From contig CALJZR010000001.1 in NCBI GenBank assembly GCA_937983635.1, positions 1 to 45,689 of the forward strand: a stretch of 45,689 bases of DNA. The letters are read 5' to 3'. Position numbers and translations under genes: made by a program. Positions 8,044 to 44,890 of this stretch are shown here, piece after piece. The number at the start of each line of letters is the position of its first letter. The stretch's first letter is position 1. Origin of the DNA: an uncultured bacterium. Its GTDB lineage: Bacteria > Patescibacteriota > Patescibacteriia > Patescibacteriales > UBA12465. The notes below the pieces were generated by a model. That model did not search any database. It worked only from the letters and a program-made list of their open reading frames with translations, and had not been told where the DNA came from.

Positions 8044-9567
8044 ATGATTAAGAGCTTTTCCTTTTTTATGTTATCACTTCGTTTTAAGATTAGAATATTT
8101 TGGCTAATATTATTGTTTTTAATAGTAATATTTTTTGCTTTCCGTTTTGTTTCTCCGAGCGGTTCTTGGCGTTGCCGTCAGAATTTTACTGGTTCTAATA
8201 TTTTGCTAGATTCTTTATCATTATCGGCATCTGCTTGTATTAGCCAGGCTTCTCCGGCAGAGCGGGTGGTGCGTGCTACCGACGGCCCGCTTTTAGTCTT
8301 AGCGGATCCTATTTATTTTTCTATTTTTAGCCCTCGTCCTTTTAGCCGCGCCGAAGTGGAAATTGTATATCGACCCCATCTGAGTTCTTCCACTCCGATT
8401 TTTGAGGCGGGATTTTTGGCGGATGCTAAATTATGGCGCTACCAATTAAAGCCTGTATATAATCTTTGGTTGGAACAGGGTTTTTCTTCTTGGTTTTCTC
8501 TGCGGGACGGCAATATGCGCCTCTTCCAGAAAGAGAAGCGTTTTTCTTCTGTCTCTGAATTTTTAAGCGCTTGGCGTCAGCAAGGTAGTGATTTATGCAC
8601 TTATAAAAATTGTTTGGCGGTTTATAATCTTGCTCTCAATGATTTTCCCCCGGCTTTAGATTTTAAGAATTTGAAACAGGCTCCTAGTTTTTTTGAATTT
8701 CCTTATGCTTTACGGGGGGCGCATCAGTTTTATTTTTATTTACCACAAGCGGGCTTGGAATTAAACGGTTCTTTTTTCGATTTGAATGATAATAAAGATA
8801 AGGATGAAGCTCAATTTTTAATTTTTTCTGGGCAAAGGCAGGTGGCCAGTGTTAATTTAGCAGACCAGCGTCCGCAGGCTGAAGAGAGCGCTGACCGCGG
8901 TCCTGTTCAGGCTTTTAGTATTTCTCGTTCTGATTTAGCCCCGGGTCTCTATCGTTTGGAGTTTAAGGCTAATGACGACCTGGTTCTTAATTCGCTTCGC
9001 ATTAATTCTTCCTATCTTTCAGCTATTAACAAGATTTGGCCTTTTGATCAGGAAAAAATTTTTCTGCTGACCGATGCCCCGTATCTTCAAGTAAAATCTT
9101 TAGATCCCGGTGCTCTTCAGGATTTTAGTTTTGGTCAGGAACGGCTATCCTTGTCGGAAATTTATCATCAGTACGAATTTAAGAGTCGCCAAGGTGGAGT
9201 GCAGGCTATTAATTTGGAGCGAGGTGGCTTGATTTTAGAAAATAATGGTGTTTTTGCCGCTACCGCCGACTCTTTGCTTAATCCTGACTATCAGAGATTG
9301 GCTCGTTTTTCTACTTTAAGTGAAGAAATGGATTTTGTGCTCGCTGATTATGAATCAGCCCAAGCGGAAGAAGACGGTTGGCTGCGTTCACGCCTAGATT
9401 TTGAAGCTGGTGATTTTTATAGAGAGAATCAGCGGTATAGCTTAATTCTTTCGGTGCCGGGCTTGAAGCTGGATGGCGGTGCTGGCGGTTTGCTGGAAAT
9501 TAAAGAAATCAAAGTGCATTTTTATGGTAAGAGTTTAGGGGAAAAAGTAAGAGATTGGTTACACTAA
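8044..9567 (+). CDS. Hypothetical N-terminally membrane-anchored protein (large extracytoplasmic domain)
   Basis: 507-aa ORF. It has a hydrophobic N-terminus (IRIFWLILLFLIVIFFAFRFV) followed by a soluble domain with no motif I recognise. It is co-directional and tightly packed with the downstream glycosyltransferase genes. Confidence 0.7.
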   Translation: MIKSFSFFMLSLRFKIRIFWLILLFLIVIFFAFRFVSPSGSWRCRQNFTGSNILLDSLSLSASACISQASPAERVVRATDGPLLVLADPIYFSIFSPRPFSRAEVEIVYRPHLSSSTPIFEAGFLADAKLWRYQLKPVYNLWLEQGFSSWFSLRDGNMRLFQKEKRFSSVSEFLSAWRQQGSDLCTYKNCLAVYNLALNDFPPALDFKNLKQAPSFFEFPYALRGAHQFYFYLPQAGLELNGSFFDLNDNKDKDEAQFLIFSGQRQVASVNLADQRPQAEESADRGPVQAFSISRSDLAPGLYRLEFKANDDLVLNSLRINSSYLSAINKIWPFDQEKIFLLTDAPYLQVKSLDPGALQDFSFGQERLSLSEIYHQYEFKSRQGGVQAINLERGGLILENNGVFAATADSLLNPDYQRLARFSTLSEEMDFVLADYESAQAEEDGWLRSRLDFEAGDFYRENQRYSLILSVPGLKLDGGAGGLLEIKEIKVHFYGKSLGEKVRDWLH

Positions 9568-18036: not shown

Positions 18037-18066
18037 AAAAAACTATCTTTATGAAGATAGTTTTTT
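18037..18066. terminator. Bidirectional intrinsic terminator between convergent rnhA and the por/pilin-like operon
   Basis: AAAAAACTATCTT (18037-18049), loop TATGA, AGATAGTTTTTT (18055-18066). The A-tract upstream and T-tract downstream let it work on both strands. Confidence 0.6.
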
Positions 18067-18092: not shown

Positions 18093-19397
18093 TTAGCGAC
18101 CACTAGGCGACCAGTGCCAAGGTTCGTTGGGGCTTGAGTTGAGATTGGCGTATAGACCCTGGGCATTCATACAGGCAGTTAAGCCTGAAGAATTATTATG
18201 GTCCCAAGTCATTTTTTTGCCATCTAGGCGGTAAAGGTCTAAGGCTACTCCTTTGCCATGATTGGAGCAACAAGGGGTAGCTGCTTGGGTGCCTTTTTCT
18301 GCTTTTATGGATATTTGTCGGGCCGGGGAGCGCCAAGCCGCACTTACTCCAAAGATATTTTTGCCCCCATTTTTTTCGCGGACGCAAGCCATCGCGGTAT
18401 TATATTTTTCTACAATTTCACTTTTTGCTTTAAGATTAGTACCAGCAATATTGGTCATTTTTCCTGGTTCCTGTTCGCCGTAGCCACGACAAATAGATAA
18501 ATCTCCATTTCTCGCAGCGGTGCAGCCTTCTTGATAAGGATTTTCTGCTTGGTCATTGGGCGTTGAAACTTCGGCGTCAGAGAAGTTTGTAGTTTCCAGC
18601 ATTTTTAGAGAGATAGATTTTAAGTTATTTAAGTCAGGGTTAATCTGGTCAAGAATCAGGTAGGTGCCCATGAGAATGATGATTCCGGTGACACTGCCTA
18701 AAATTAAATCTTTAGCCTGGCTTATTTTTGAAGCATCGCCGGCCGAGACTAGCCAGAGCAGGCCTCCGGCCATTAAGACAATCGCCGCGAGGATGCCGCC
18801 AACACCTAGGCCATATTTATAGACTCCTTGGATGTATTGGGCAATCCAGGGGATTTTACATGTTCCTGAATGGTCTTCTTGATTGGTGCAATAGGCGTCA
18901 GTGAGTTCGACGGTGTTAATAGGGATGGACATGATAGGAATTTGGAACTTAGCTTTAGTTATCCCAGATTCTTCTTCTCCCCCCGGGCAACAACAGATTG
19001 GTGGCATGTTTTGGCCGTTTACCATTTGATTGTCGGGTTTATTATCGGGGTCACATTTAGCATCCTCATCTTTTGTTTCTGTTTTTTTACATTCAGGGCT
19101 ATGGTGAGACCAGTCGTTGGGATAACCTAGTTCGATTCCAGTTAATGATTTTTGCCACCGGCAGTCGTAAGTAGTAGATATTTTGCAACAACACACCTGA
19201 TTTTCGGCTGGTATTCCGTTGCCGCAATTAAGGTGATAAGCTTCCATTCGTCCACCAGAAAGGAAGCAGGCTCCAGATGAAGTTTGACCAGTGGGTATTG
19301 TTTCTAGGCTGCAATTTTCCATTTTTGTTTCTGCCGTTGCTGAAAGTAATGGTAAAAATAGAGATATGATGGTAAAAATAAAAATTTTCTTTTTCAT
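18093..19397 (-). CDS. Exported Cys-rich protein: signal peptide, Cys-rich region, VirB2/TrbC-like 'T4SS pilin' two-TM core, C-terminal VanY/M15-type peptidase domain
   Basis: Signal peptide: MKKKIFIFTIISLFLPLLSATA. The N-terminal region (aa 29-180) has 15 Cys, including CCC triplets. The core is YGLGVGGILAAIVLMAGGLLWLVSAGDASKISQAKDLILGSVTGIIILMGTYLILDQINP. The C-terminus has WRSPARQ, S-N-H-G-K-G-V-A-L-D (SxHxxGxAxD) and E-P-W-H (ExxH), the zinc D,D-/L,D-peptidase M15 motifs. The start overlaps the porB stop (ATGA). Confidence 0.8.
   Translation of the reverse strand: MKKKIFIFTIISLFLPLLSATAETKMENCSLETIPTGQTSSGACFLSGGRMEAYHLNCGNGIPAENQVCCCKISTTYDCRWQKSLTGIELGYPNDWSHHSPECKKTETKDEDAKCDPDNKPDNQMVNGQNMPPICCCPGGEEESGITKAKFQIPIMSIPINTVELTDAYCTNQEDHSGTCKIPWIAQYIQGVYKYGLGVGGILAAIVLMAGGLLWLVSAGDASKISQAKDLILGSVTGIIILMGTYLILDQINPDLNNLKSISLKMLETTNFSDAEVSTPNDQAENPYQEGCTAARNGDLSICRGYGEQEPGKMTNIAGTNLKAKSEIVEKYNTAMACVREKNGGKNIFGVSAAWRSPARQISIKAEKGTQAATPCCSNHGKGVALDLYRLDGKKMTWDHNNSSGLTACMNAQGLYANLNSSPNEPWHWSPSGR
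18096..18440 (-). other. VanY/peptidase M15-like domain within the 434-aa protein
   Basis: aa ~320-434 carry RS-x3-Q, SxHxxGxAxD and ExxH in the canonical order and spacing. Confidence 0.65.
18603..18845 (-). other. T4SS-pilin-like (VirB2/TrbC-like) two-helix core, copy A
   Basis: aa ~185-265. It is near-identical in pattern to copy B at 20847-21098, sharing GGILAAIVLMAGG, SAG, SQAK, TG and INPDL. Confidence 0.6.
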
Positions 19398-20260
19398 ATT
19401 TTATAAATTGAAATATTCTTGTCGGCATTTTTTTGAATATGGGCAATATCTTCTGTTTTTAAGTGGCGGAAGCGACCTTGCATTTTTAAATATTCATCAA
19501 CCGGCTTAGCCTGAAAATTTTGATTGATGCTAGAGCTGCTTAATTGGCTGTTACTGTATTCAAGTAGGGGATATAATCCCGTCTGGACAGCTAGACGGGC
19601 GGCCGCAATCGCTTCATCTGTTTTAATTTTCCAGCCGGGTACACAGGGGGAGAGAATTTGTATATATGTCGGCCCCGATGTTGCCAGAGCCTTCTTCACT
19701 TTATTAGTGATATCATCAGGAAAAGCAGCGGTGCTTTGGGCAATGTAATTTAGTCCGTGGGCAAGAGCGATGCCAATCATATCTTTTTTTACTTGCTGTG
19801 CTCCGATGCTTTTTTTGTCAGCGGGGGTGGTGACCGTGTTAGCACCCCAAGGAGTGGAACCAGAAGCCTGGACGCCGGTATTGGAGTAAGATTCGGTGTC
19901 GTAGCAAATATAGAGAATTTCTTCGCCTCTTTCCCAGAGGCCGCTAATTAAGCCGATGCCGATATCATAAGTGCCGCCGTCTCCCGCTTGAATTACTACT
20001 TTAGTGCCTTTCTTTTTTTTTCGCAGAGAAGCTTTGACACCACTCGCGATCGCCGCCGAATTTTCGAATAAAGAATGAATCCAAGGCAATTGCCAGGCGC
20101 TTTGGGGGTGGGCGGTAGTAGTTACTTCTAAGCAGCCGGTAGCATTTACTAAAATCGTATCCGCGCTTAAAGCCCGCATCACTGCCTGTACTGCGCTTAA
20201 TTGGCCACAGCCGGCACAGGCATTATGGCCAGGGGTGAGAAAATTTTTTTTATATTCCAT
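19394..20260 (-). CDS. porB: Pyruvate/2-oxoacid:ferredoxin oxidoreductase beta subunit (TPP-binding)
   Basis: GHNACAGCGQ at the N-terminus, the GDGGTYDIG TPP-binding motif, and a length of 288 aa. Confidence 0.9.
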   Translation of the reverse strand: MEYKKNFLTPGHNACAGCGQLSAVQAVMRALSADTILVNATGCLEVTTTAHPQSAWQLPWIHSLFENSAAIASGVKASLRKKKKGTKVVIQAGDGGTYDIGIGLISGLWERGEEILYICYDTESYSNTGVQASGSTPWGANTVTTPADKKSIGAQQVKKDMIGIALAHGLNYIAQSTAAFPDDITNKVKKALATSGPTYIQILSPCVPGWKIKTDEAIAAARLAVQTGLYPLLEYSNSQLSSSSINQNFQAKPVDEYLKMQGRFRHLKTEDIAHIQKNADKNISIYKI

Positions 20261-20267
20261 ATCTTAA

Positions 20268-21275
20268 TTATTCAAAGTCTTTGTAGCAGCAGTATAAACC
20301 GCTGAAACATTCGCGACCATCCCCATTATCGGCGTAATATTTTTCTCCTGTTTGGCCGAGCTGACTGCATCTTGTTTCGGAACAGAAGGCTCCGGGTTCA
20401 GAGCCGCAAGATTCTGAGGCGTCAGCATTACCAAGATAGCACATGGAGAAATAGCAATAACCATTTAATTCTTCGCCAGTACCTGTTTCTTCACATCGCT
20501 CTCCGTCTTTAATTCCCAGGCAATTTGCGACTTTACCGGAACATTCTGGCCATTGGCTGCAACGATTATTTTTTAGTTCATACATTATTCTCAAATCTTG
20601 AACAAAGTAATTTCCGCAGTTTTCTTTAGTGGTAATTTTTTTGTCAGCATCAAAGCACCATACTACTTTGCCGTCGCAGTCTTTTTTAATATTACAGCCC
20701 ACGGTTATCATTTGGCAGCGACCACCGGAAGCTAAATAAATACCCGCTTCGCTGTGCTGATATGGAGTTCCATTTTTTTCTTTACAAGTTTTACTGTCCA
20801 TAGTTTCCGCCTTGCCATCGTATTCGCAACAGACAATACTAACTTTTTCAATTAATTTTATGGTGGCAAGACGGAAGTTGAGCAGGTCTGGATTAATGGT
20901 GTTTAACATTATCCAAGCGCCAAAAAGAAGGATGAGACCAGTAATACTACCCATAATTAAGCCTTTAGCTTGGCTAACCTTATCACTGCTGCCGGCTGAA
21001 GTCAGCCAGATAACGCCGCCGGCCATTAAAACGATAGCGGCCAAGATACCGCCGATACGGAGGCCGTAGTTATAAAAAGCTTGAATCATTCTAGCAATAT
21101 AGCTGACGTCATTTTCTTCCATGACAACGTTACTTTCAAATCCAGGTAAGCCTACCTGAGGCTGGAAAGTTAAAGGATCTTCAACAGCGGCTATTACCGG
21201 GAAGATGCTTAAAAAAAGTAGACCGGTAATGGCGAAAAATAGAATTAGTTTAATTTTTTGTTGCCGCTTGGACAT
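20268..21275 (-). CDS. Exported protein: signal/anchor, T4SS-pilin-like two-TM core, C-terminal Cys-rich domain (24 Cys)
   Basis: The ATG at 21275 (MSKRQQKIKLILFFAITGLLFLSIFPVIAA) is preferred over the track start at 21302, which would overlap porA. The core is YGLRIGGILAAIVLMAGGVIWLTSAGSSDKVSQAKGLIMGSITGLILLFGAWIMLNTINP. The C-terminal 190 aa is full of Cys (CC, C-x-C). The gene lies between porA and porB with gaps of 4 and 7 nt. Confidence 0.8.
   Translation of the reverse strand: MSKRQQKIKLILFFAITGLLFLSIFPVIAAVEDPLTFQPQVGLPGFESNVVMEENDVSYIARMIQAFYNYGLRIGGILAAIVLMAGGVIWLTSAGSSDKVSQAKGLIMGSITGLILLFGAWIMLNTINPDLLNFRLATIKLIEKVSIVCCEYDGKAETMDSKTCKEKNGTPYQHSEAGIYLASGGRCQMITVGCNIKKDCDGKVVWCFDADKKITTKENCGNYFVQDLRIMYELKNNRCSQWPECSGKVANCLGIKDGERCEETGTGEELNGYCYFSMCYLGNADASESCGSEPGAFCSETRCSQLGQTGEKYYADNGDGRECFSGLYCCYKDFE
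20847..21098 (-). other. T4SS-pilin-like two-helix core, copy B
   Basis: aa ~60-143 of the 335-aa protein, paralogous to copy A. Confidence 0.6.
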
Positions 21276-21279
21276 ATAA

Positions 21280-22437
21280 TTACCAAAATTTAAGACCCTC
21301 ATGTTGAGAGGATTTAATTATACTATTAATTGTTTCTAGGCTGATGTCGCGGCCGCCTAAGCCGACGATGTGATTGCTAAATATGCCTTTAACCGTTGGG
21401 CAAGCAGCTATTACATCCGCGTATAAGGGGCCGGTGGCGCCGCTTGATATAGCTTTTTCAATAATGGCGATTTGGTGGCTACGGCTGGCGATTCTTTTAA
21501 TATCTTCAGCGGGGAAGGGGCGGTAGCTGCGGATTTTTAGTAGCCCCACTTTATTTTGTTTTTTTAAAGCTTCTTTAATGGTGCCGCTGACCGAGCCCAT
21601 GGCGATTAAAAGAGTTTCCGCTTTTTGAGGCCCATAGTATTCCACTAAGCCATTATCAAAAATAGTTTTAATTGCTAGGGGTGAAGGTAATATTTTTTTC
21701 CAGCTGTGATAAGCGCTGGTAATTTTTGCAGTGGCTGCTTTTAGATCTTGATCTAAACGGGCTTTTTCTTGCCAGTAATATTCCGGGCTGAAAAAACCGC
21801 CGATCGTAATTGGCTGTTTAGGGTTAAGATAGGTGCCAAGCTTCGGCTTGTAGCTCGGAAGGTATTTTTTTATTTGTAATTTACTGGGAATAATTACATT
21901 TTCATGGGAGTGAGTAAGAATGAAGCCGTCGACATTTACCGTCACGGGAATATTTAAGCTTTCCGCTAATTTATAGGAGATAACATGCAGGTCAACCGCT
22001 TCTTGATGATTTTCCGCAAAGAGCATTATCCAACCAGCATCCCGCATGGCCATGGCATCGCTATGGTCATTCCAAATATTAATAGGAGCACCTACTGCCC
22101 GGTTGGCCACAGTCATAACTAGCGGCAAGCGTAAGCCGGAGGCGTTATATAAAACTTCAATCATTAGTAATAATCCTTGGGAGCTGGTGGCGCTATAGAC
22201 GCGGCTACCGGCTGCGCTCGCGCCCACTACAATTGAAGCGGCCGCAAACTCGCTTTCCGCTCTAAGGTATTCATAATTAGCTTTTCCCGAGGCTTTAAAC
22301 GAGGCTAAATCTTCAACAATATGAGTTTGGGGAGTAATGGGGTAGGCGGAAACAACCTCTGGCTGGATATTAGCCACAGTTAAAGAAATAGCTCGAGAGC
22401 CTTCCAGGAAGCTAGTTTTGGTGATATTTTTTTTCAT
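21280..22437 (-). CDS. porA: Pyruvate/2-oxoacid:ferredoxin oxidoreductase alpha subunit
   Basis: The ATG at 22437 (MKKNITKTSFLEGSRAI...) begins right after the porD stop. The track's longer start at 22521 would overlap porD by about 80 nt. It contains VSAYPITPQT and typical alpha-subunit length. Confidence 0.9.
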   Translation of the reverse strand: MKKNITKTSFLEGSRAISLTVANIQPEVVSAYPITPQTHIVEDLASFKASGKANYEYLRAESEFAAASIVVGASAAGSRVYSATSSQGLLLMIEVLYNASGLRLPLVMTVANRAVGAPINIWNDHSDAMAMRDAGWIMLFAENHQEAVDLHVISYKLAESLNIPVTVNVDGFILTHSHENVIIPSKLQIKKYLPSYKPKLGTYLNPKQPITIGGFFSPEYYWQEKARLDQDLKAATAKITSAYHSWKKILPSPLAIKTIFDNGLVEYYGPQKAETLLIAMGSVSGTIKEALKKQNKVGLLKIRSYRPFPAEDIKRIASRSHQIAIIEKAISSGATGPLYADVIAACPTVKGIFSNHIVGLGGRDISLETINSIIKSSQHEGLKFW

Positions 22438-22438
22438 T

Positions 22439-22720
22439 TTAGTAATCTTTAGCCATAATAATGGCTTTGACTGGACATTCAGCGGCACAAATGCCGCAGC
22501 CTTTGCAGTAGTCATAGTCAACTTCGGCCTTCATTTTACCGTTTTTATCCATTTTCATGAGAATACAGGCGTCGGGACAGAGCTTGGCGCAACGTGAACA
22601 ACCCACACAAACAGCGGCGTCAATTTGGGGTTTTTGGGTTCGCCAAGATCCAGTTTTATTGGCTAAGGCTGTTCCGGGCGGGGTGGCTGGCGATAAAGCT
22701 TTGTTATTTTTTTTGTCCAT
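22439..22720 (-). CDS. porD: Pyruvate:ferredoxin oxidoreductase delta subunit (2x[4Fe-4S] ferredoxin-like)
   Basis: Two cluster motifs, CVGCSRCAKLCP and CKGCGICAAECP, in 93 aa. Confidence 0.9.
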   Translation of the reverse strand: MDKKNNKALSPATPPGTALANKTGSWRTQKPQIDAAVCVGCSRCAKLCPDACILMKMDKNGKMKAEVDYDYCKGCGICAAECPVKAIIMAKDY

Positions 22721-23270
22721 ATCGATAAGCTTCTTTAACGGCCGTTTGATTTTTATTAATTATGTCCCTGCCTTTGCTTTGAAATTTTTCTGCCACGGCG
22801 CTAAGAAGCGATTTGAGAGTTATAAAGTTGGTAATTTGAGCAAAGGCGCCTAAAATAACGGTGTTAACAATATTTTTGCCTAGAAGGCGCAAGGCGATAG
22901 CGGTAGCGGGACTGCTGATAATTCTTTCAATTTTTATTTTATTGCCGCTTAAGCACTGTAATTCTTCGGGACTTTTATTGCTGTTGACAATTAAATAAGT
23001 CTGGGAGCTAATTCCGTTTAGAATTTCTTTATTCTCCAGGAGGCTTTCGTCTTGAATAATTAAAACATCCGGCTGATATATTTGTTCACGGGTAATAATT
23101 ATTTCTTTAGAAATGCGGGCAAAAGCCTGGATGGGGGCGCCACTTCTCTCTACGCCAAAAGAAGGGAAGGCCTGGGCATATAGGCCGTCTTTAAAAGCAG
23201 CGAGGGCAATTAGTTCCGCTGCTGTTACTACTCCTTGACCACCGCGGCCGTGAATTCTAATCTGAAGCAT
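22704..23270 (-). CDS. porG: Pyruvate/2-oxoacid:ferredoxin oxidoreductase gamma subunit
   Basis: The ATG at 23270 (MLQIRIHGRGGQGVVTAAELIA...) is the canonical gamma-subunit N-terminus and has an AAGGA upstream. The gene overlaps porD by 17 nt. Confidence 0.88.
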   Translation of the reverse strand: MLQIRIHGRGGQGVVTAAELIALAAFKDGLYAQAFPSFGVERSGAPIQAFARISKEIIITREQIYQPDVLIIQDESLLENKEILNGISSQTYLIVNSNKSPEELQCLSGNKIKIERIISSPATAIALRLLGKNIVNTVILGAFAQITNFITLKSLLSAVAEKFQSKGRDIINKNQTAVKEAYRYGQKK

Positions 23271-23283
23271 ATTTTCCTTGTGG

Positions 23284-24036
23284 TTATTGTGCCAGCAAAC
23301 CGTCAATCATGCTGGTAAAATTTTCTTCAGGGTAGAAGCCGGTAATTTTATAGCGATTAACAAACCAGCTAGGCGTTCCGGAGAGACCTAAGAGTTCGGC
23401 GTCGGCAAAATCGTCATTTAAACGATATAGATAGGTTTTGTTATCTAAACAACTATTGAATTTTTCCGTTTCTAACTTTATTTCGGCGGCTACTTCTTTT
23501 AGCTTGGCATTCAAAGCGGCGCTTTGGAGGCTGCTGATTTCCGTTTGTCGTTCAAACAATAAGTCGTGCATTTCCCAGAATTTACCTTGGGCTCCAGCGC
23601 AGTTGCCGGCAAGGGCGAGGTCTACCGAATTATCATGTAAGGGGTAGTCGCGAAAGGTGATGCGTATCTGATTGCCGTATTTTTTAGCTAAATTTCTGAC
23701 CACGGGAGCGGCTTGCTGGCAGTAAGGGCAGGCATAGTCAGAAAAAATTACAATTTTTACCTTGGCATCTTGCGGGCCAAGACTATAATTTTCCCCCCGT
23801 CCATCAATGGCGGCAGTAATTTTTTTTATTTCTTCTTCTTGGGCGGCGATACTTCCGCTCTCTCTGATATTTTTAACTTGATTAACTATATAGCTAGCCG
23901 CCGTAATGGCTCCAGCAATTATTAGAAAGATAAAAATTATGAGCATGATACCCCACCATTTTTTATACCAAGGGCGGAGTTTAACTTTGTGTCTTTCTTT
24001 CATTTCCAAATATTGGATACGCTCATTAAGGCTCAT
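23284..24036 (-). CDS. Membrane-anchored DsbA-family thiol:disulfide oxidoreductase
   Basis: N-terminal TM (WWGIMLIIFIFLIIAGAITAASYIV) and a thioredoxin-fold CPYC active site (FSDYACPYCQQAAP), with DsbA-like length and layout. It is the first gene of the minus-strand cluster. Confidence 0.85.
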   Translation of the reverse strand: MSLNERIQYLEMKERHKVKLRPWYKKWWGIMLIIFIFLIIAGAITAASYIVNQVKNIRESGSIAAQEEEIKKITAAIDGRGENYSLGPQDAKVKIVIFSDYACPYCQQAAPVVRNLAKKYGNQIRITFRDYPLHDNSVDLALAGNCAGAQGKFWEMHDLLFERQTEISSLQSAALNAKLKEVAAEIKLETEKFNSCLDNKTYLYRLNDDFADAELLGLSGTPSWFVNRYKITGFYPEENFTSMIDGLLAQ

Positions 24037-24096: not shown

Positions 24097-24125
24097 ATTA
24101 TATCACAAGTGCTATTTTGTGGCTA
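24097..24125 (-). promoter_or_regulatory. Candidate extended -10 promoter for the dsbA-por cluster
   Basis: On the minus strand it reads TAGCCA-17 bp-TATAAT, with TGA immediately upstream of the -10 (TGnTATAAT). It lies about 55 nt upstream of the dsbA-like ATG. Confidence 0.4.
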
Positions 24126-28238: not shown

Positions 28239-28288
28239 TTTGAGTAATCTTGTTTTGTCCAAAGTTTTTAAAATTGGCCAGATTACTT

Positions 28289-28933
28289 ATGTCTGATCAC
28301 CTTGAAGATCAACCAAAAAATGAGACTCATTCCTCATTTTTTAAAAGTTTGCCCAAACCGCAGCGAGCCGCTTTTTTATTTTTATCGGCCCTGAGTTTGG
28401 GCGTTCTTGTTTTATGGCTCTGGCAGTTCAACGCTCGCCTTTCTCGGCCTTTTCGCGTACCTGATACTGGCCAAAAAGAAGTGGCGGTTGACACTAGCGA
28501 TTTTGAAGCGGCTTTAATTAGTTTAGATTCTGATGGCGACGGTTTGACTGATATAGAAGAACGGAGCTTATACGCTTCTTCCCCTTATTTAGAAGATTCC
28601 GATAGTGACGGTATTGATGACCGCACTGAAGTAGAAAGCGGCAGCGATCCCAATTGTGCCGCTGGCCAAGATTGCGGTGCCGCTACCGCCCCGGCAATCA
28701 CTCCAATTATTGCCAGCTCCACCACCATTGATGTTGAACCTGAAGTTGGCGCCGATAGTGGCGATGAAACTGATCTACAGGCGATGATGGCGGGGCAAGC
28801 CAGCGCCGCCCAACTCCGCGCCATGCTTTTAGATAGCGGCGCTAACGCTGACATGATTAACCAGCTTAGCGATGAAGAATTACTCAAGACCTATCAAGAA
28901 ATGTTAGCCGAGCAGGGGACTGCGGCCCAATAA
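28289..28933 (+). CDS. Membrane-anchored protein with thrombospondin type-3-like calcium-binding repeats
   Basis: The ATG at 28289 (MSDHLED...) is preferred over the TTG at 28250. It has one TM (AAFLFLSALSLGVLVLWLW) and two acidic loops, DSDGDGLTDIEE and DSDSDGIDDRTE (28526-28630). It ends 22 nt before the giant gene. Confidence 0.7.
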   Translation: MSDHLEDQPKNETHSSFFKSLPKPQRAAFLFLSALSLGVLVLWLWQFNARLSRPFRVPDTGQKEVAVDTSDFEAALISLDSDGDGLTDIEERSLYASSPYLEDSDSDGIDDRTEVESGSDPNCAAGQDCGAATAPAITPIIASSTTIDVEPEVGADSGDETDLQAMMAGQASAAQLRAMLLDSGANADMINQLSDEELLKTYQEMLAEQGTAAQ

Positions 28934-28955
28934 AATATTTATTATTTTGTAGATA

Positions 28956-31900
28956 ATGTCTGTGAAAATTATGAATAAGCGATTTAATTTTTTAGCCAAT
29001 CGGCAAAAATTAGGGGCAGTGGCGATTTTAGCCGTCATCATTGGCTCTTTATTTTTAATCTCACCGCAGTCAGCGCAAGCGCAGATGGTGACAGCCGACA
29101 CTCAGACTGTTTCTCAGACTTTTATGCAAAAAGTTTGGGATTTTTTAAAGAAAGCTTATGAAAAAGGCGGCGCCTCGGCTTTTCAAAAAACAGTCAGAAC
29201 GGCTTTGAATAAAATTGCTTACGATACCGCTACGGCTCTTGGTTCTGGCGGCGAAGGTCAGCAGCCTTTATTTGTTACTAAAGACTGGGGAGAGTATCTT
29301 ACTCAAATTGGCGATGAAGCGGCCGGTTCTTTTATTGAAGACGCGGTTAATAATTGGAATGATGCCGATTGGGATAGTACGGGTAAGGGGAGCGCGAAAA
29401 ATGAAGAATGTACAGCCTCTTATGAAACCTGTGCTCGTGGCACCTTTAATACGGTAACTCGAGAATGGGAGGGCGGCTGTGATATTATCCAAAATTCCCA
29501 AGAGGCGGCTGAGTGTGAAAAAAAGTGCCAATCGGCGCTTTTGCAATGCGGGGGAGTAGTTACCGGCGCCGATGGGGTCACCGCCCCTAAAAGCAGCCGA
29601 ACTATCGCCGTTTGCCAACCCTCTTCCATTTCTGCCAAATTAACCATCGCCATGGGCTTGGTTGATTATAATCGCCCCGCAGCCCCTAATTGTACCGCCT
29701 CTGCTTTAGTGGAAAATTGGGATAGCTATGTTGATCGCATGACTGCTTTTAAAGAAGATGACTTTTTGGATAAGTTTGCCGGTATCTTCAATCCTGTTTC
29801 CAATGATCTCGGTATTTACATGGCCTTGCGGACAGATATGACCCAGAAGATGGCTACTTCTGTTGATACTTCCAAATTAAAATTAAATGCGGATAAGGGT
29901 TGGCTGGATATCCGCGATATTGCCGGCAATCCCAAAGGCATGCCTGGTGATGCTGCTACTCAGGCAGAGATGTCTAAGCAGGGCTATGTTAATAACATGG
30001 CCTCATTTTCCGGCGACGCTTTAATTGATGCCGCTAACGTCTTTTTAAATCAATTAGCTTTAACTGCCTTTAATCGTTACATGAGCAAACTGGGAGAAAA
30101 GACTCCTGATTCGGTTAGTATTAACAATCCCACTTCTGATCCGAAAATTGGTTATAGTGAGGTGGCGGTCAGGGAGAGTGCTGCTCAGATAATAGAACCC
30201 GACTTTACCGTCCGGGCTGACTACGACATTTTGTCTTCTCTCAGTATGTGCCGCGATCGCAACAATCCTGGCCCGGCCGAATGCGTCATTGATGATAAAC
30301 TGATGCAGGGAATTGTGGAGAAAAAAACAGTCGCGGAAGCGGCTAAAGAAGGCTATCTTCATAAGGAGTGGCTCTTTACTGCTGATTTTCGTGAGGGTTC
30401 TTATAGTCTGAGAAATTTGCAAATCATGCGCAAGTACCGCATTGTTCCTTTGGGCTGGGAAGTGGCGGCCAGTGCTAATAAAACAGCAACTCTAGTAGAT
30501 TTAATGTCCTGTTTCAGTAATTCCGATTCTTATAATGAATATACTTCTAACTTTGATATTAGAAATCAAGCTTGGTGTCGCGGTTTGGTTGATCCTAATT
30601 GGGTTTTGAAGGCGCCTCTAAATTATTGTGCTAAACAAGGTTACAGTGCTCAGATTCTTAATACTTCGGTTATTCCCAGTGTTGACGGTAATGGCAATGC
30701 GGCGGACACAATCCAAATCACCCGCGCTGAAGATTATTGCGCCGATGATAAAACTTGTATTAAAGAGAAGGCCGATGGTAGTTGCGAAGCTTATGGTTAT
30801 TGTCAGTCTGAGCGGCGCACTTGGAATTTTGATTCTAAATCTTGCCAACCGATTAATAATACCTGTAGCTCTTTGATTAATGTCAGCTCTAACCAGAAAG
30901 TGGCTTATTTGGAAAATACCTTAGATTATGCCAATTGTAATGCAGATACGGTTGGTTGCAAACGTTATTCTTTAATTGGCTCTTATGCTACTTCCACCGG
31001 TCAAGTCTCTTGGTCTCCTAATCCTACTGTTAATGCTTATTTTAATAATAAATTAGGTTCCTGTTCTTCGGCTGACGAGGGTTGTAAAGAAGTGATGCGG
31101 GTAAAACCGGGCTGGGGCTCAAACTTAATTATGGGCGCCGATTTTGCTAATGATAAGGTCGGCGATTCCTTGGCTAATAGCTTGATTAATAATTATTGGC
31201 CGGTCTGGTCTACTGGTAATCGCGCCGCCAGCATTATTGACGCTTCGACTCTTGGAAGCGGTTCAGTGGGTAAGGCGATCTTATTAGAATCTACGGGTAA
31301 TGTCGCTAGCACCACCATCGGACTTTATTCCGATAATGCTGTTTCTCTAATTCCTGATAATCTTAATATTCTTTCTGGAGAAACCTATACTCTGAGTGCC
31401 GATGTTTATTTAATTGAAGGCGACAAAGTTCATGTGGTCTTGGGTAATGATTATTTAGCAGCAGCTGAGACGATTGATAAAAATGCTTGGCGCCATGTGT
31501 CTGTTACTCGGAGTTTAAAGGAAAAGCCTTTGTCAGAAATGTCTTTCTCGGTGGTGGGTTATAGCACTGGTTCTCAAGTGCGTTTTGCTGTTCGCAATCT
31601 TAAGTTAGAGATGACTTCTTGGGATTCCGGCTTCTCGATTTACGGGGCTTATAAGGTTTATGAAAAGATTATTCCTCCTTATTTAGCTGAAGCCTGTTAT
31701 ATCAACACCAATCCCAGTAGTCCTGATTATCGTTTGCGTCCAGACGCTCCGGCTGTTTGTAATAATTTTGCTCGTCAGTGTAACCGTGATGAAGCTGGTT
31801 GCGAAAGCTATAAAGAGAATAGCACCGGTTTTACTGTAGCCGCTCAAGCGGTTTCCTCAGATTATTGCGATGCTTCTTGCGATGGTTATGATTTATATGT

Positions 31901-34900
31901 TTCCCGGGCTAATTATTTCTACTCTCCTTTTGCCGAAAAGATTATCCCGAAAAATAGCCGCTCCTGCAGTGCTGATGCGGTTGGTTGCAGTGAGTTTACT
32001 AATTTAGATGAAGTAGCGGCTGGTGGCGAAAAGAGAGAATACTATACTCAGTTGAAGCAATGTATTAAGCCCGGACCAAGCTGTGCCGATTTTTATACTT
32101 GGGAAGGGACGGAAGAAAGCGGTTATCAGCTTAAATCTTTGGTCTTAAAAAAAGATGATGCTGGCGACCCGGCCGTTACCGCTGATGATTCTCAGCTTTG
32201 TAGCGAAGCCATTTTCAACTTGCCGCCGAGCGACCCGGGCTTTAATCCTGATTGTAAACAATTTTATAATAAAGCGGGGGCGATTTCTTATCACTTAAGC
32301 GCCACCACTATCACCTGTTCGGATAATTGTCATAATTATCGCCTCTCCGAAAATAACGTTGATACTTCTATTACTCAAGCCCAGTGCAGTGGCATTGATC
32401 GTTTTTGGAGTGCTGCCTCTTCTGCTTGTTTCGTGTGTAAAAATGGTGGCGTTTGGAATGCTGAATATAATGCTTGTATTTATCAAGCAATTCCTAACGA
32501 AGGCATTAAATGTTCGGCCGCTCAAAACGGTTGCCGGGAGTATAACGGCAGTCTGGGCAATAACGTGAAGATGGTTGAAGCTTATAGTTTTGAGAATGGT
32601 ACCGATGGCTGGAAAGGCCAGTGTGGTGATGATGCCCGCAGTTCCGCTGTCGCTAATGTCAATAACGGTAAGTCGTTATTATATGATCGCGGCTCCAATT
32701 ACGGCAACGTTAATGTTCAAACAGAGTGTATCCAAAATAATAATGTAAGCTTTTTTGATAAATTTTTTGGCAGTGCTAACGCCGCTCCGGCTTCCTATAT
32801 CAAGCAAGTCGTTGGTCGTAACGTTTCTCAGGGCAATTCTTATAGCCTGAAGTTTACCGCCAGCGCTCCCTTGGATGCCAACGTCAGTTTTGCTTTCTTA
32901 AGCAGTCAGGATGAAATCGTCTATTTTAACGCCAGCGAAGGCGATATTACCGGTAAAATTACTATTTCTGGAAATAGCGAATGGCGAACGTATGAATTGA
33001 GCCTGCCTGAACTTAATCATAAAGTTGATGGTGATGAGTCTTTGATTATTATTTCTGATCGTGATTTCTTCTTGGATAACATTGTTTTAACGGAAATTCG
33101 CGATCGTTATTATTTAATAAAAAATACGAGCGAAGTGCCGGATGTTTGTTACTATGATATGCTGGATAATTATCAGGGAGCTGACTATAATCTCGGTTGC
33201 TCTTTGTATAATGACCGATCCGGCAATAATCATTATTTGCGCCAATTTAGCCGCCTTTGTCAGGAATCAGCTGTTGGTTGTGAGTTGATGGTGGATACCG
33301 CTAATTATGATGATTATAAGCCTGCGGTCTGGCACGATGATAATAATAATGGTGTTTGCGACTCCAACGAGACGGAATGCGTATCTGTGGCTGGGGACCG
33401 TTTCTTTTATGCAATTTATGACGAAAGCCGTCGTTGCAATAAAGCTGATTTAGGTTGCTCCCGTTTAGGAGAATCATCCTCATCTGGCTCCAACTTAGAT
33501 TGGAGCGATGTCTTTAAGCGCAATAACCCTAATAACTATAGTCAGTCATTATGCGCTGCTGCTGATGCCGGTTGCGAAGCTTGGCAATATACTGATGGCA
33601 GCGGACTTACTTATTTCAAAAATCCTGGCAATAACGCCTGTGTTTATCGGACTAGCACTAATCCCGATAAGCCGGGTAAGGCTTGGTATAAAGTGCCGGT
33701 TACTCGGTGTGATTTGAATAGTAATGGTAGCATTGATGGTACGGAAAAAAGCTTGGATATTTGTAAAACTGCCGATGATTGTGCTGGCGGTCGCCCTTGT
33801 TTAGTGGATAATAATGATTATGATTGTTCCGTTTCCTATTTTAAGACTGTCGGTTTTGGCGGCGGTGGCAATCAAGTTCCTGTGCCTTCCTTGGCAGCTG
33901 GTTTGTGTGAATCAGCTAGTTCTGGCTGTACGGAATATATTGATCCGGTAAGCACTTTCTCTTCCAACGTGGTTTATAATCCCCTTACGGAGATGAGCGC
34001 TAATGGTCAGTATTTAGGCTGGGAAATGGTTAATGGTTCCCGCCAACAAGATTTAACGCTTGAGCCGAACAAGCTTTATATTTTTTCGGTAGGCTATAAT
34101 GTTGCCAGCACCACTATTAATAATGATGTAATTATTAATTTTCCTTCCGGAGTATCACTTCTTCAAGAAGATAATAATTTCAGCACCGTAGCGAGTACAA
34201 GTTTGCGCATCCCCAGTACTCAGCCGAACAAACGCTTTATTTTCCATTCTCGTGGCAATATTGAAGCGACCGTTATTGGTGGCTGGCTTGGGCATGAAGT
34301 TATTTTAAGGGAGGCAATTATTGATTATCAGTTCCGTCAGAATGTTGATAAGACCACCTGTAATGGCATTGTAAATTTTGATAATGGTTGCGTTTTGTTT
34401 AATGAGCGCTCGGTTAATGGTGGAGCCGGACTACTTTCTTTGAGCGGCGGTTGGAACGCGGCTGCCAGCGTTGACGGACAGTCGCCTGCTAGTTGTTCTG
34501 CCGGTAATTGTAGCGCTAATAGGTTGGTAAAAGTTCGACCTAATCGCGTGTGCGCTTCTTGGCTGGACTGTTTAACTTATGCGGTGGATCCGGAAACTAA
34601 TCAGCGCACCTGTTATGCTTTAGGCGAGTGCAATAGTTTAAATGATAATAATGAATGCGCTAATTTTGTTAGATCATCTAATCAAATCTTAGCTTCTTCT
34701 AGTTTTGATATTACTAAGCGTGATGGTTATTCGGTCCTAAATAAATTGAATCTTTCGGGCATGAGAGAGGTTGGTCTTAATACTGAGGCTCATTATGACT
34801 TTGAAGATGCTAGCCCAAATATAACTTGCAAGTTGGTCTCTAATAGTACTTCCACTTGTGCTTTTGATAATGGGATTGTCGCTGATAGCATTATTGACAG

Positions 34901-37304: not shown

Positions 37305-37724
37305 ATGAAAAATTTAATGTTTTTGTTGTTGGCAACAATGTTTATCTTTGTTGCTTGTAAAAAGGATCCAGACCCCGATCCAATTCCCGACCCACCGCCA
37401 GTGTCATATGATAATGTGACAGTAAAGGTAAAATTTACCGCTGCCCCCCAGGGGATGGTGGTTACGGTGACCAATTTTGGTTTATCTGACCAAGACAAGG
37501 TTGCTCTTACCTCCAATCTTTACCCGGTAGTACCAAGTCCGGTTGCTGATTTTACCTGGCAGGTTCCCGAGGACATTGCTTTTCAGCAGTGGAATAAAAC
37601 CGTCTACATATATGTAGGCGCTTGCCGCAGCGACGGCTACGCATGCTACGGCCAGGAAGAATGGCTTAAAATTGACAAGTTGGGCAAAACCAACGAAGTC
37701 ACATTTGTCGTTAAACCTTTCTAG
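37305..37724 (+). CDS. Small putative lipoprotein with Pro/Asp-rich linker
   Basis: Signal peptide MKNLMFLLLATMFIFVAC with a lipobox-like FVAC, then the KKDPDPDPIPDPPP linker and a beta-rich domain of about 100 aa. Its codon usage is visibly C-ending (GAC, GGC, TAC, TGC), unlike its neighbours. Confidence 0.7.
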   Translation: MKNLMFLLLATMFIFVACKKDPDPDPIPDPPPVSYDNVTVKVKFTAAPQGMVVTVTNFGLSDQDKVALTSNLYPVVPSPVADFTWQVPEDIAFQQWNKTVYIYVGACRSDGYACYGQEEWLKIDKLGKTNEVTFVVKPF

Positions 37725-39696: not shown

Positions 39697-40284
39697 ATGT
39701 CCGTTGATGACCGGCTCTTATCTGCCCAAACTGAAAAAAATCCTAACAATCAAGCTGAATCCAGCTCCGATCGAGCGGGCGCTTTGCGGGAATCTCAACG
39801 AGCCGAAGAAAATAATGAAAATGAACCGGAACAAGAAGATTTGCGCAGCCAGGTGATGAGCAAGAGAAAGGAGATGGCCCTAAAGATGAAGGGGAAACTT
39901 AGTAAAGCAGAATTGGCTTTTAGTGCTGGCACCAGCAAGCTTCTTCAAGGGGCTTGGCGCAATATCGTCATGTCATTTGGTTTTTCTTTTCTCTATGTTT
40001 ACGTCCATTTATTTTTAAAAGGAATCTTTGGTAAAAGATTTTTTGCCGATTTGGGCTCAGAGTGGCGCGATCGTCCCGGTTTGACTATTGAAGAGAGGGA
40101 AAGAATGGGGGTTAGTTTGAAGATAATTGAATCTTTTGGTGTTGGCGCAATCAGTATTCTTATTTTTATCATTTTAATTTTTTCTTTTTCTATTCCCGCT
40201 TTAATTATTGAGGTTATGTCCAATCCTCTTCGTGCCGGCATTGCTTTGCTCCAGACTTTTTGGAGCTGGATTTCCGGTACTTAG
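39697..40284 (+). CDS. Hypothetical membrane protein (acidic disordered N-terminus plus hydrophobic helices)
   Basis: 195 aa. The first ~70 aa are Glu/Asn/Ser-rich. TM-like segments follow (IVMSFGFSFLYVYVHLFL and GVGAISILIFIILIFSFSIPALII). It ends 9 nt before the next gene. Confidence 0.65.
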   Translation: MSVDDRLLSAQTEKNPNNQAESSSDRAGALRESQRAEENNENEPEQEDLRSQVMSKRKEMALKMKGKLSKAELAFSAGTSKLLQGAWRNIVMSFGFSFLYVYVHLFLKGIFGKRFFADLGSEWRDRPGLTIEERERMGVSLKIIESFGVGAISILIFIILIFSFSIPALIIEVMSNPLRAGIALLQTFWSWISGT

Positions 40285-42969: not shown

Positions 42970-42975
42970 TTTTTT

Positions 42976-43938
42976 ATGTTAATTCTTGAAGGCTTAATCG
43001 ATGAGAATTTTCAAAATAAATTATCTCATTTTATTGATGATGCCTTAATTTATAATGACATTCAGAGTGCTAGGAGATTATTAATTGCTATTAAAAAAAT
43101 ATTAAAGAGCAATAATGACCCTAAAATAAAAAATAAGTTGATTGATTATTATAAAGCTAATATAGATAAACTAAAATTCATTTGTTTTTTTGATTTAGAT
43201 GAAAATGATATTTCTGATTTAATGAAAAACAGCATACAGATGGTTTTAGGTGTTGATGGATTTAACTTGGTCGATAAATTAAATGATCGTCTTAAATTTG
43301 TTGAAATTTTAGAAAATAGAGATCTTTTAAAGCAACAAATAAGCAATTGTTTATTATTGAATAAAAATAAAGTAACTACTAAAAAAATTAGAATTGGATC
43401 TATTCTCCACGAACCAACCGTGTCAAATTGGTTAAAAGATTACTTGTCTAATATTAATCTTAGTGTAGATCCCGGACTTAGAATTAATAATTATTTGAAT
43501 AATAGTCAAAATATCCAGTTAATTGATTCTAATGAAAAGAAAAAGATTAAAGATTTGATAGTATTTTTTGAACATACTAAAAAATCTTCTTTAGTTGCAG
43601 GTAATTTAGAGGAAAGTTTTATTTTTACAGATCAGGACGGCCGAAAAATTGTTATTGATCATGGTCTTCCTATTAAGTCTGATGTAAATATTGAGAAAAT
43701 TATAAAAGACATTTATTCAAAAGAAAATTTGTTGGATATTGGCAAAGATAGTTTTATAAATTCAAAAAAACGAGATTTTTATAGATTTAACAAAAAAATA
43801 GAAGATTTAGATTCTTTTCCGCCAAATCCTTTATTAATCCTGTCTAATTCATTAAATAATTACTCTCCCTCGTCTTTAGAATATAAAGCCATTAAGCAGG
43901 AAATAGAAAGACTGCGTAAAAATCAAAAAAATGTCTAG
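42976..43938 (+). CDS. Hypothetical soluble protein (very AT-rich gene)
   Basis: 320-aa Asn/Lys/Ile-rich ORF with no TM and no motif I recognise. GC is strikingly lower than its neighbours. Its end overlaps the kinase start by 8 nt. Confidence 0.6.
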   Translation: MLILEGLIDENFQNKLSHFIDDALIYNDIQSARRLLIAIKKILKSNNDPKIKNKLIDYYKANIDKLKFICFFDLDENDISDLMKNSIQMVLGVDGFNLVDKLNDRLKFVEILENRDLLKQQISNCLLLNKNKVTTKKIRIGSILHEPTVSNWLKDYLSNINLSVDPGLRINNYLNNSQNIQLIDSNEKKKIKDLIVFFEHTKKSSLVAGNLEESFIFTDQDGRKIVIDHGLPIKSDVNIEKIIKDIYSKENLLDIGKDSFINSKKRDFYRFNKKIEDLDSFPPNPLLILSNSLNNYSPSSLEYKAIKQEIERLRKNQKNV

Positions 43939-44890
43939 CTACAAAAGAAGACCCTTGATTGCCGTTGCCGGTTCTTTAGCTTTTGACCGCGTGATGAATT
44001 TCCCCGGCCGTTTCTCCACCCACATTCTTCCTGGAAAAATTCATGACTTAAGTCTCAGCTTCTTGTTGGATCAGTTAATTATCGGTTTCGGCGGCACTGC
44101 TGGCAATATCGCTTATAATCTGGCGCTCCTCAAGGAGCGCCCTTCTGTCTTAACGGCCGTTGGGGCGGATTTTGCTCCTTATCGCCGTCATTTGCGTTCT
44201 CAAGGAGTTGATTTGCGTGCTTTAGTCAGCGATAAGAAAAAAAATTGTGCCTCAGCTTTTATTATTACCGATGCTGATGATAATCAGATCGCCGGTTTCT
44301 ATCCTGGCCCCTCCGCTTTACCCTCTTTTTCTCGTTTACTCAATAGCGCTTGCGATTATGTTATTATTTCTCCCGACGACAAGGCGCGGATGCTGGCTGT
44401 TCAAGTTTGGGCGCGTAAAAGAAAATTATCTTATATCTTTGACCCCGGACAACAAGTAACAAATTTTACCGGCTTGGAGCTAGCCGCTTTTATCAAAGAT
44501 GCTTTCTTAGTGATTGGTAATGATTATGAGATTGAAATTATCCGGCGGTCTTTAAAGGCAAAAACAGTGGCTAGTATTTGTCCTACTAAAGCTTTAATTA
44601 TTACTAAAGGAGCGCAGGGTTCAGAAATAGTGATTGGTAATAAGAGAGTCTTGATTCCGGCAGTGCTAGCTCGTGAAAGTTTAGACCCTACTGGGGCGGG
44701 CGATGCCTATCGGGCTGGCCTCTTAAAGGGTTTGTCTCTAGGCTTTAGCCTGGAAGACTGCGCTCGCCTGGCGGCCACGGTTGCTGTTTACGCGGTTGAG
44801 AAAAAGGGTACTCAAAATCATTATTTTACTATTAAAAATTTAGAAAAACGCTATCGCCAGAGCTTTGGACAAGTCATTAAATTAACTTGA
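43931..44890 (+). CDS. PfkB-family carbohydrate/nucleoside kinase (adenosine-kinase-like)
   Basis: GGTAGNIAYNLALL (N-terminal Gly-Gly region) and DPTGAGDAYRAGLL (the PfkB signature 2 / catalytic GAGD). Confidence 0.88.
   Translation: MSSYKRRPLIAVAGSLAFDRVMNFPGRFSTHILPGKIHDLSLSFLLDQLIIGFGGTAGNIAYNLALLKERPSVLTAVGADFAPYRRHLRSQGVDLRALVSDKKKNCASAFIITDADDNQIAGFYPGPSALPSFSRLLNSACDYVIISPDDKARMLAVQVWARKRKLSYIFDPGQQVTNFTGLELAAFIKDAFLVIGNDYEIEIIRRSLKAKTVASICPTKALIITKGAQGSEIVIGNKRVLIPAVLARESLDPTGAGDAYRAGLLKGLSLGFSLEDCARLAATVAVYAVEKKGTQNHYFTIKNLEKRYRQSFGQVIKLT

Follow-up and report, generated by a model that had tools for sequence, protein, structure and literature searches.

Layout of the gene and its product

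The stretch of DNA analyzed here (the window) comprises 45,689 nucleotides from an uncultured bacterium of the Patescibacteriota (GenBank contig CALJZR010000001.1, positions 1 to 45,689) and carries on its minus strand, at 18093..19397, a gene with an ATG start for a protein of 434 amino acids (aa). A preliminary description, made from the sequence alone, had divided this protein into a signal peptide, a cysteine-rich head, a two-helix hairpin like that of type IV secretion system (T4SS) pilins and a C-terminal M15 peptidase domain, and all four parts are present in the open reading frame (ORF). The signal peptide (aa 1-22; 19332..19397, minus strand like every part of the gene) was read from the sequence together with a hydropathy segment at aa 3-24; it consists of MKKK, a hydrophobic core and SATA|E, and the site reads as one for signal peptidase I, with no lipobox. 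The head that follows (aa 23-182; 18852..19331) is mostly β strand in the structural model. It holds 14 cysteine residues, one fewer than first counted, among them the two expected CCC triplets (aa 69-71 and aa 135-137), and the C-terminal domain holds another 6, for a total of 20. The final ≈30 residues of the head, with C170, C180, and IPWI, are conserved and form part of the scaffold.

The conserved scaffold proper (aa 183-252; 18642..18851) runs from a pre-hairpin segment, IPWI..YI, through helix 1, a loop of sequence SAGDASKISQAKD, and helix 2; the hairpin sequence quoted in the preliminary description lies at aa 200-249. Kyte-Doolittle hydropathy in 19-residue windows, with a threshold of at least 1.6, yields three peaks in the protein (aa 3-24, 192-222, and 230-250), corresponding to the signal peptide and the two helices, and the full-length structural model places the helices of the hairpin at aa 183-217 and aa 222-252 with pLDDT values of 84-94. 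A post-membrane segment, INPDL..K.I...I, and a variable linker come next (aa 253-282; 18552..18641). N253 and P254 are invariant, and C-terminal domains are swapped between relatives at this junction. The hairpin is thus flanked by a head of ≈160 aa and by ≈180 aa of linker and enzyme domain, the latter occupying aa 283-434 (18096..18551). Within that domain, RSPARQ (aa 356-361, part of WRSPARQ at aa 355-361; 18315..18335), SNHGKGVALD (aa 378-387; 18237..18266), and EPWH (aa 425-428; 18114..18125) each occur once and in that order, as the preliminary description had stated.

A predicted M15 peptidase domain of the LAS fold

A database search returned 216 homologue clusters at E ≤ 0.001, of which 120 were listed, and the motif set WRSxxxQ / CCSNHGxGxAxD / EPWHWS is common to 77 of the 120 listed. 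In an alignment of 78 homologues of this same subclass, R356, H380, D387, E425, and H428 are all invariant, and so are the six cysteine residues of the domain (292, 303, 338, 376, 377, and 409); Q361 is kept in at least 90%. The five catalytic positions remain invariant after the addition of 12 relatives that Pfam recognizes as VanY or Peptidase_M15 (90 homologues). Searches with the single protein sequence returned little. The NCBIfam model vanY_BG scores 12.3 bits against a cut-off of 400, so that the NCBIfam search with the protein gave no usable match, and in a phmmer search of Protein Data Bank (PDB) sequences the sole match was Ply500, an endolysin of a Listeria phage (E 0.068). Because the single-sequence searches were this weak, the assignment required alignment profiles and structure prediction. 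VanY is reached at E ≤ 1e-3 by 35 of 121 homologues. In the PDB, the first match of a combined profile is VanXYc (E 4.3e-8), ahead of YodJ/LdcB, BaLdcB, Ply500, DacB, and VanY, and a profile of the subclass alone again ranks VanXYc (2.2e-3) and Ply500 (5.3e-3) first. In these alignments WRSPARQ pairs with YRTEKEQ of VanXYc and YRSTAEQ of Ply500, SNHGKGVALD with SEHQIGLAID of VanXYc, and EPWH with the same four residues of VanXYc.

The AlphaFold2 model of aa 275-434 is confident (pLDDT 95.2, pTM 0.88). Compared with the PDB by Foldseek, it matches VanXYc (4.3e-6), BaLdcB (1.8e-5), and VanY (8.9e-5) with template-modeling (TM) scores of 0.55-0.61, and the best 26 matches, ranging from E 4e-6 to 9e-4 and including LysB4, LysECD7, and ChiX, are all M15 enzymes. 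Among viral models, actinophage endolysins and M15B/VanY proteins are nearest, the phage M15B endolysins at TM 0.5-0.6. Structures of the M15B group are therefore matched, and the peptidase assignment in the preliminary description stands. Taken together, these data support a domain with the M15 fold of the LAS (lysostaphin / D-Ala-D-Ala peptidase / Sonic hedgehog) type and a complete catalytic set. In the mechanism proposed here, the zinc ligands would be H380, D387, and H428, the catalytic base would be E425, and R356 would hold the carboxylate of the substrate. The predicted activity is that of a zinc-dependent M15B (VanY / VanXY / LdcB) peptidase that cuts the stem peptides of peptidoglycan.

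The third branch of the LAS fold, the Hedgehog N-domains, also appears among the PDB structural matches, after the 26 M15 enzymes, and a sister class found at the same position in related genomes aligns weakly with Sonic hedgehog. The domain could accordingly be imagined as a noncatalytic, Hedgehog-like binding module that has kept the fold and serves as a ligand or adhesin. We consider this extremely improbable, as the Arg, His, Asp, Glu, and His residues are all invariant across 78-90 homologues and the top structural matches are active enzymes.

The domain shares with the M15B enzymes (VanY, VanXYc/VanXYg, LdcB/DacB; Pfam VanY PF02557) the LAS fold, the ordered motifs Arg...Q, SxHxxGxAxD, and ExxH, and a residue-for-residue alignment with VanXYc. 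Like VanY, it is predicted here to be extracytoplasmic and membrane-tethered. It differs from the solved M15B structures in being only 15-19% identical to them and below the Pfam and NCBIfam cut-offs, in its six invariant cysteines, two of which form a CC pair that adjoins the catalytic SNH on its N-terminal side, and in its position C-terminal to a two-helix hairpin and not behind a single N-terminal anchor. Just 31 representatives of the CCSNH subclass were found at E ≤ 1e-10 among 1.84 billion proteins. Almost all of these are 320-550 aa long with the domain at the C terminus, and the subclass is practically confined to the hairpin architecture.

A pilin-type hairpin as the conserved scaffold

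The hairpin is the most conserved region of the family. Over aa 196-250, pairs of sequences are on average 54% identical in the subclass and 60% when all classes are taken together; the corresponding means are 28-30% for the head and 24% for the linker. M209, G212, N253, and P254 are invariant in all 121 sequences. The module is found in exactly two ORFs of the window, the 434-aa protein and a paralogue encoded two genes upstream (20268..21302, minus strand), which combines a signal peptide and the same hairpin with a cysteine-rich C-terminal domain of ≈200 aa that has no enzyme signature. Because the hairpin is the most constrained part and is common to two proteins, it may well do more than anchor them.

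At the family level, the hairpin belongs to the Patescibacterial T4SS_pilin family (PF18895), which is matched by 111 of 121 homologues at E ≤ 1e-3 and by the paralogue above the curated cut-off (29.2 versus 26.6 bits). The paralogue also has a weak match in NCBIfam, below the cut-off, to a pilin-like conjugal transfer protein of a Mycoplasma integrative and conjugative element (ICE; E 0.0027). The pilin type proposed in the preliminary description thus holds for the family, but it is not reached by the 434-aa protein alone, nor did the implied kinship with VirB2 find support. Family profiles run against the PDB recover none of the solved VirB2, TraA, or TrbC pilins at E ≤ 1, a search in which short hairpins carry little signal, and two domains of ≈150 aa are foreign to classic pilins. 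Classic VirB2-type pilins are small proteins without such added domains. The full-length model gives a best Foldseek E of 0.14 and only generic helical hairpins such as ATP synthase subunit c; that comparison is uninformative because long helices draw in unrelated coiled proteins, whereas the domain-only model resolved the C-terminal domain.

VirB2-like pilins of the PF18895 type are widespread in Patescibacteria, in which VirB1 homologues are few (PMC12102498), and in Southlakia epibionticum a T4SS that includes predicted pilin subunits is essential (PMC10633639, PMC12857230). As in the protein studied here, the signal peptide of the Patescibacterial pilins precedes two hydrophobic helices that a short loop connects. 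The present protein differs from them in its length of 434 aa, with a large head and an enzyme domain, and in the location of its gene inside an operon of central metabolism, outside any T4SS cluster.

A fixed locus behind a DsbA-like gene

The gene is the last of a minus-strand cluster whose order is DsbA-like, porG, porD, porA, paralogue, porB, and the hairpin-peptidase gene. A DsbA-like oxidoreductase of the thioredoxin fold (23284..24036) is the first gene, followed by porG (22704..23306), the porD ferredoxin gene (22439..22720), porA (21280..22521), the paralogue, and a porB-like gene (19394..20260) for the thiamine pyrophosphate-binding subunit of a 2-oxoacid:ferredoxin oxidoreductase. 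The porB-like gene lies directly upstream, and its stop codon shares 4 nucleotides (ATGA) with the start codon of the hairpin-peptidase gene. Two pilin-hairpin genes are thus interleaved with the genes for four subunits of this oxidoreductase, and the embedding of surface or membrane proteins in an operon of central metabolism is a puzzling arrangement.

This order, facing a convergent RNase H gene, is present in all ten contigs that we looked up, whatever the C-terminal domain. In a scan of one genome per species, in which 79 loci were compared with the genes of the window by BLAST synteny alone, porB, then one or more hairpin genes, then RNase H occur in 59 of the 79; most of the remaining loci are interrupted by contig ends. 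Two further loci keep the DsbA-like gene, hairpin genes, and RNase H together without por genes, so that the DsbA-like gene adjoins the hairpin genes even in relatives that have no por genes. Although it had seemed unusual at first sight, the architecture is therefore normal for the lineage and not unique: it is what this conserved locus encodes in at least 59 of 79 related species, and the database search yielded 216 homologue clusters at E ≤ 0.001.

The cluster composition also bears on topology. The protein would be exported by the Sec pathway and then anchored or scaffolded by the membrane hairpin. After cleavage of the signal peptide, the helices at aa ≈192-222 and ≈230-250 are predicted to form a membrane hairpin with a short cytoplasmic loop, which would leave the head and the C-terminal domain outside the cell. 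This is the arrangement proposed in the preliminary description, and it is what one expects from a signal peptide and two transmembrane helices, invariant cysteines on either side of the membrane segment, and a DsbA-like gene at the head of the cluster. Both outer domains are likewise expected to be disulfide-bonded, and the DsbA-like oxidoreductase would be the enzyme that oxidizes their cysteines.

Pfam annotation identified no T4SS genes in any scanned ORF of the 45.7-kb window, nor within 7-10 kb in the ten looked-up loci; in the 79 species loci, BLAST synteny shows por and housekeeping genes as neighbors. The Falkowbacteria (GTDB class ABY1) are listed as VirB4-positive (PMC12102498), and from this listing a T4SS is probably encoded elsewhere in genomes of this type. 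These observations bear on the suggestion in the preliminary description that the protein combines the wall-opening role of VirB1 with the pilus role of VirB2, in a T4SS pilus that would be the organism's own machine. Family-level membership of the hairpin in T4SS_pilin, the ICE match of the paralogue, the abundance of VirB2-like pilins beside few VirB1 homologues, the VirB4-positive status of Falkowbacteria (PMC12102498), and the essential pilin subunits of the genetic study (PMC10633639) are all in line with such a subunit. We nevertheless find it quite unlikely. VirB4, VirB6, VirB3, and the coupling protein were not found among the Pfam-annotated genes of the window or of the ten loci, the sequence and structure comparisons of the hairpin return no VirB2, TraA, or TrbC at E ≤ 1 and only generic hairpins, the T4SS_pilin score of the protein itself is below the cut-off, and, judging from published structures, a VirB2-type filament could hardly accommodate two globular domains of 150-170 aa on each of its subunits. 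The VirB1-like hydrolases PrgK of pCF10, TraG of pIP501, and CwlT of ICEBs1 resemble our prediction for this protein in being membrane-tethered, extracytoplasmic, and catalytically modular. Those enzymes combine SLT/lysozyme with CHAP or NlpC/P60 domains and are encoded within T4SS operons (PMC12102498), whereas the gene studied here lacks T4SS neighbors and encodes a hairpin of the pilin type joined to an M15B domain, in place of which some species have NlpC/P60 or SLT at the same slot.

The window as a whole is a housekeeping region, with genes for RpoB, RpoC, a glycosyltransferase, MurJ, LepA, RecJ, RNase H, LeuRS, KsgA, and a protein of the GlnS/GltX type. Such neighbors (rpoB/C, MurJ, LepA, RecJ, RNase H, por, and LeuRS), together with the synteny across species, rule out a phage or mobile-element origin. 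The setting would suit a housekeeping autolysin or carboxypeptidase, in which the hairpin is a mere anchor, the M15B domain acts on the peptidoglycan of its own cell by trimming or cleavage, and the head binds the wall or regulates the enzyme; variants include LdcB/VanY-like trimming and a hydrolase for space making or cell separation. A single conserved slot in a housekeeping region, the overlap with porB, MurJ at ≈4.4 kb, the lack of T4SS genes in the window and the ten loci, the short linker, and nearest solved structures that are VanXYc, LdcB, and VanY are all consistent with this role, which we regard as the main rival reading but on balance doubtful. A plain anchor would not be expected to be the best conserved part of the protein (54-60%, with M209, G212, N253, and P254 invariant) or to recur in a second, nonenzymatic protein of the same cluster. 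Two further features, presented below, are also unusual for such an enzyme.

Exchange of the C-terminal domain

The C-terminal slot behind the hairpin is occupied by different enzymes in different relatives. One cluster of 28 hairpin ORFs carries either the CCSNH-type M15 domain or a classic VanY/Peptidase_M15 domain, and a second cluster of 9 carries NlpC/P60. A mixed cluster of 30 ORFs comprises a class with the motifs WRVTEA...CHYNGxCVD...GGHLHV, 3D/DPBB domains, and a second class with an H...D...HLH pattern, and Peptidase_M15_4, SLT, SLT_3, C39_2-like, and glucosaminidase-like domains occur singly or rarely. Pairwise comparisons reveal the modularity directly. One homologue (P0008) is 68% identical to the 434-aa protein in the head and 72% in the hairpin region, yet carries a classic VanY domain (21%); another (P0015) has a head 60% identical, yet an NlpC/P60 domain. 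Conversely, three homologues (P0003, P0004, and P0005) are 93-100% identical in the hairpin region and 92-99% in the M15 domain, yet only 33-34% in the head. Both outer modules are thus exchanged between species.

Since the slot accepts not only peptidases but also domains of the glycosidase type and others that resemble amidases, what is selected looks like peptidoglycan cutting in general and not one particular trimming step. For a housekeeping hydrolase, it could be countered that unrelated hydrolase families can do one physiological job; the space-making endopeptidases of Escherichia coli are drawn from the NlpC/P60, M23, and M15 families. It would nonetheless be unusual for such an enzyme that domains of the glycosidase type (SLT, SLT_3, and 3D) take the place of a peptidase at one and the same slot.

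A constant scaffold with exchangeable enzymatic C-termini follows the logic of polymorphic toxins and modular lysins (Rhs, contact-dependent inhibition, type VI and type VII secretion system effectors, phage endolysins, and receptor-binding proteins). As in those systems, the recognition part is replaced by recombination with sharp breakpoints, which is the pattern of the head described in the next section. Unlike a polymorphic toxin gene, the hairpin-peptidase gene is not followed by an immunity gene: in the window, as in every locus looked up, the next gene is the convergent one for RNase H. It also differs in that its locus is fixed in the chromosome, with no phage or mobile-element genes nearby.

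The WRVTEA class (full pattern WRVTEAYPP...CHYNGxCVD...GGHLHV; C-terminal ≈125 aa; L008, L009, L030, and others) has no Pfam match. The class has a weak alignment (E 0.04) to the N-domain of Sonic hedgehog and may be a bacterial Hedgehog-like subclass of LAS peptidases, often beside 3D/DPBB domains. Two or more hairpin-hydrolase genes stand in tandem at the slot in six loci (L030, L039, L046, L061, L074, and L075), and in L039 NlpC/P60 adjoins another catalytic class; tandem genes of differing class fit local duplication and cassette exchange.

A hypervariable head cassette

We compared the window in 150-nucleotide steps with L089, the locus of the strain that carries P0003. The DsbA-porGDA region is 99-100% identical, most of porB 98-99%, and the stretch from the hairpin through the M15 domain and into the downstream genes mostly 95-100%. 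Identity drops to 45-53% in the head, where blastn finds no match in L089 for a cassette at 18996..19376 that spans codons ≈8-134 and includes the signal peptide, although its flanks are 96-98.5% identical by blastn and 98-100% in the 150-nucleotide windows. In the more distant locus L010, with a background identity of ≈85%, the head cassette and the paralogue are down to 35-59%. The head is therefore exchanged even between near-identical strains, and no silent donor copies of it were found elsewhere in the window by tblastn or blastn.

Because the head is replaced between strains that are otherwise nearly identical, its variation suggests a recognition surface that is exposed and subject to diversifying pressure. 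Whole-head replacement between strains 99-100% identical elsewhere would again be unusual for a housekeeping enzyme. The paralogue gene (20268..21302) is a second hot spot of divergence between strains, at 72-86% identity to L089 and 35-51% to L010. A relationship between the head and the cysteine-rich tail of the paralogue was considered and ruled out (BLASTP E 0.31).

A proposed diversifying surface module

We lean toward reading the protein as part of a hairpin-anchored, diversifying surface module that cuts peptidoglycan and is directed at the wall of another cell, a preference we hold with modest confidence. The hairpin with its immediate flanks (≈100 aa), which recurs in the product of the second gene upstream, would be the constant scaffold, and head and enzyme domain would be cassettes open to exchange. 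The two hairpin proteins together would make up the module, their variable cysteine-rich parts recognizing a partner and the enzyme cleaving peptidoglycan, and they would be under the diversifying pressure expected from contact of an epibiont with its host or a neighboring cell. The idea that the enzyme attacks a host wall, raised in the preliminary description, gains indirect support from the swapping of modules.

The choice between a host wall and the cell's own is the weakest step of this reading, and several observations weigh against it. The nearest solved structures (VanY, VanXY, and LdcB) are carboxypeptidases that trim stem peptides, not wall openers; since they only trim, a lytic role rests on the company that the domain keeps at the slot and on the similar phage endolysins. 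With ≈30 aa of linker behind a membrane hairpin, the enzyme would have access to no wall but that of its own cell, barring extraction of the protein from the membrane, its polymerization, or its release. The overlap with porB, which suggests translational coupling, and the housekeeping surroundings fit a core physiological role, and hypervariability is compatible with pressure from phages or predators on any exposed protein, whatever its function. Finally, in the Pfam check suggested in the preliminary description, both expected families match the protein but score below their curated cut-offs: 19.5 bits for T4SS_pilin against a gathering cut-off of 26.6, and 12.6 bits, as a single protein, for VanY against 25.

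A more specific proposal goes further. The VirB2-like hairpin would serve as a polymerizing or T4SS-docking display scaffold, the two hairpin proteins being pulled out of the membrane to build a short filament or a patch on the cell surface, a 'lytic pilus' that presents a strain-specific head and an exchangeable enzyme to the host wall; swapping would then set the host range of Falkowbacteria-like epibionts. We judge this version unlikely.

Public databases already contain members of the family, named 'hypothetical' or 'D-alanyl-D-alanine carboxypeptidase family protein'. In a literature search of incomplete coverage, we found no paper on the pilin-hydrolase fusion or on the locus, and no report of a pilin-type hairpin as a constant scaffold for exchangeable hydrolases and cysteine-rich heads, of a fixed slot in a por operon with a leading DsbA-like gene, or of sharply bounded hypervariable cassettes in hairpin proteins. 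These findings bear on how Patescibacteria make physical contact with their hosts and breach them, and in the sole genetic study the T4SS with its predicted pilin subunits is essential, its role not established (PMC10633639). The hairpin family ties a pilin-type module covalently to cell-wall hydrolases, and its exposed parts act like arms-race cassettes, with whole-domain swaps between species and sharply bounded replacement of the head between strains. If the enzyme acts on the cell's own wall instead, the protein would be the core membrane-tethered wall hydrolase of its lineage, and its embedding in the por operon and its dependence on DsbA would become the points of interest.

Other features of the window

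Upstream of the DsbA-like gene, the best promoter-like site (24097..24125, minus strand; TAGCCA-17-TATAAT with an extended TG) is a consensus match only. An AT-rich, bidirectional terminator-like hairpin, AAAAAACTATCTT-CATA-AAGATAGTTTTTT, was read from the sequence at 18037..18066, between the hairpin-peptidase gene and the convergent RNase H gene; the consensus scan passed over it, its stem having too few G-C pairs. The mechanically called porA ORF begins at TTG and overlaps porD by 83 nucleotides. Because the porA products of relatives measure 376-400 aa, the true start is probably an internal ATG (MKKNITK...) ≈27 codons downstream. The DsbA-like protein also scores above the Pfam cut-off for TraF, a thioredoxin-like F-plasmid transfer protein (24.8 bits versus 23), a match confined to the region of the thioredoxin motif that may therefore be generic.

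Many of the loci L010-L088 are deposited as 'uncultured Gammaproteobacteria bacterium' and a few as Saccharimonadales or Planctomycetota; these are probably mislabeled records of metagenome-assembled genomes. The labels Gammaproteobacteria, Clostridia, Bacillota, and Planctomycetota on some homologue contigs are overruled by their shared synteny of the Falkowbacteria type.

On the plus strand, a 2747-aa ORF with no Pfam family (28250..37199) follows a protein with TSP3_bac repeats. Relatives keep the pair next to the locus, and their version of the giant ORF measures 2500-2800 aa with a faint match to CBM_4_9. The ORF may encode a giant surface protein. Further plus-strand ORFs of 139-891 aa without a Pfam family lie at 8044..9567, 37305..37724, 39697..40284, 40294..42969, and 42976..43938, and the G+C content falls to 31% in 42001..44000, compared with ≈42% elsewhere in the window.

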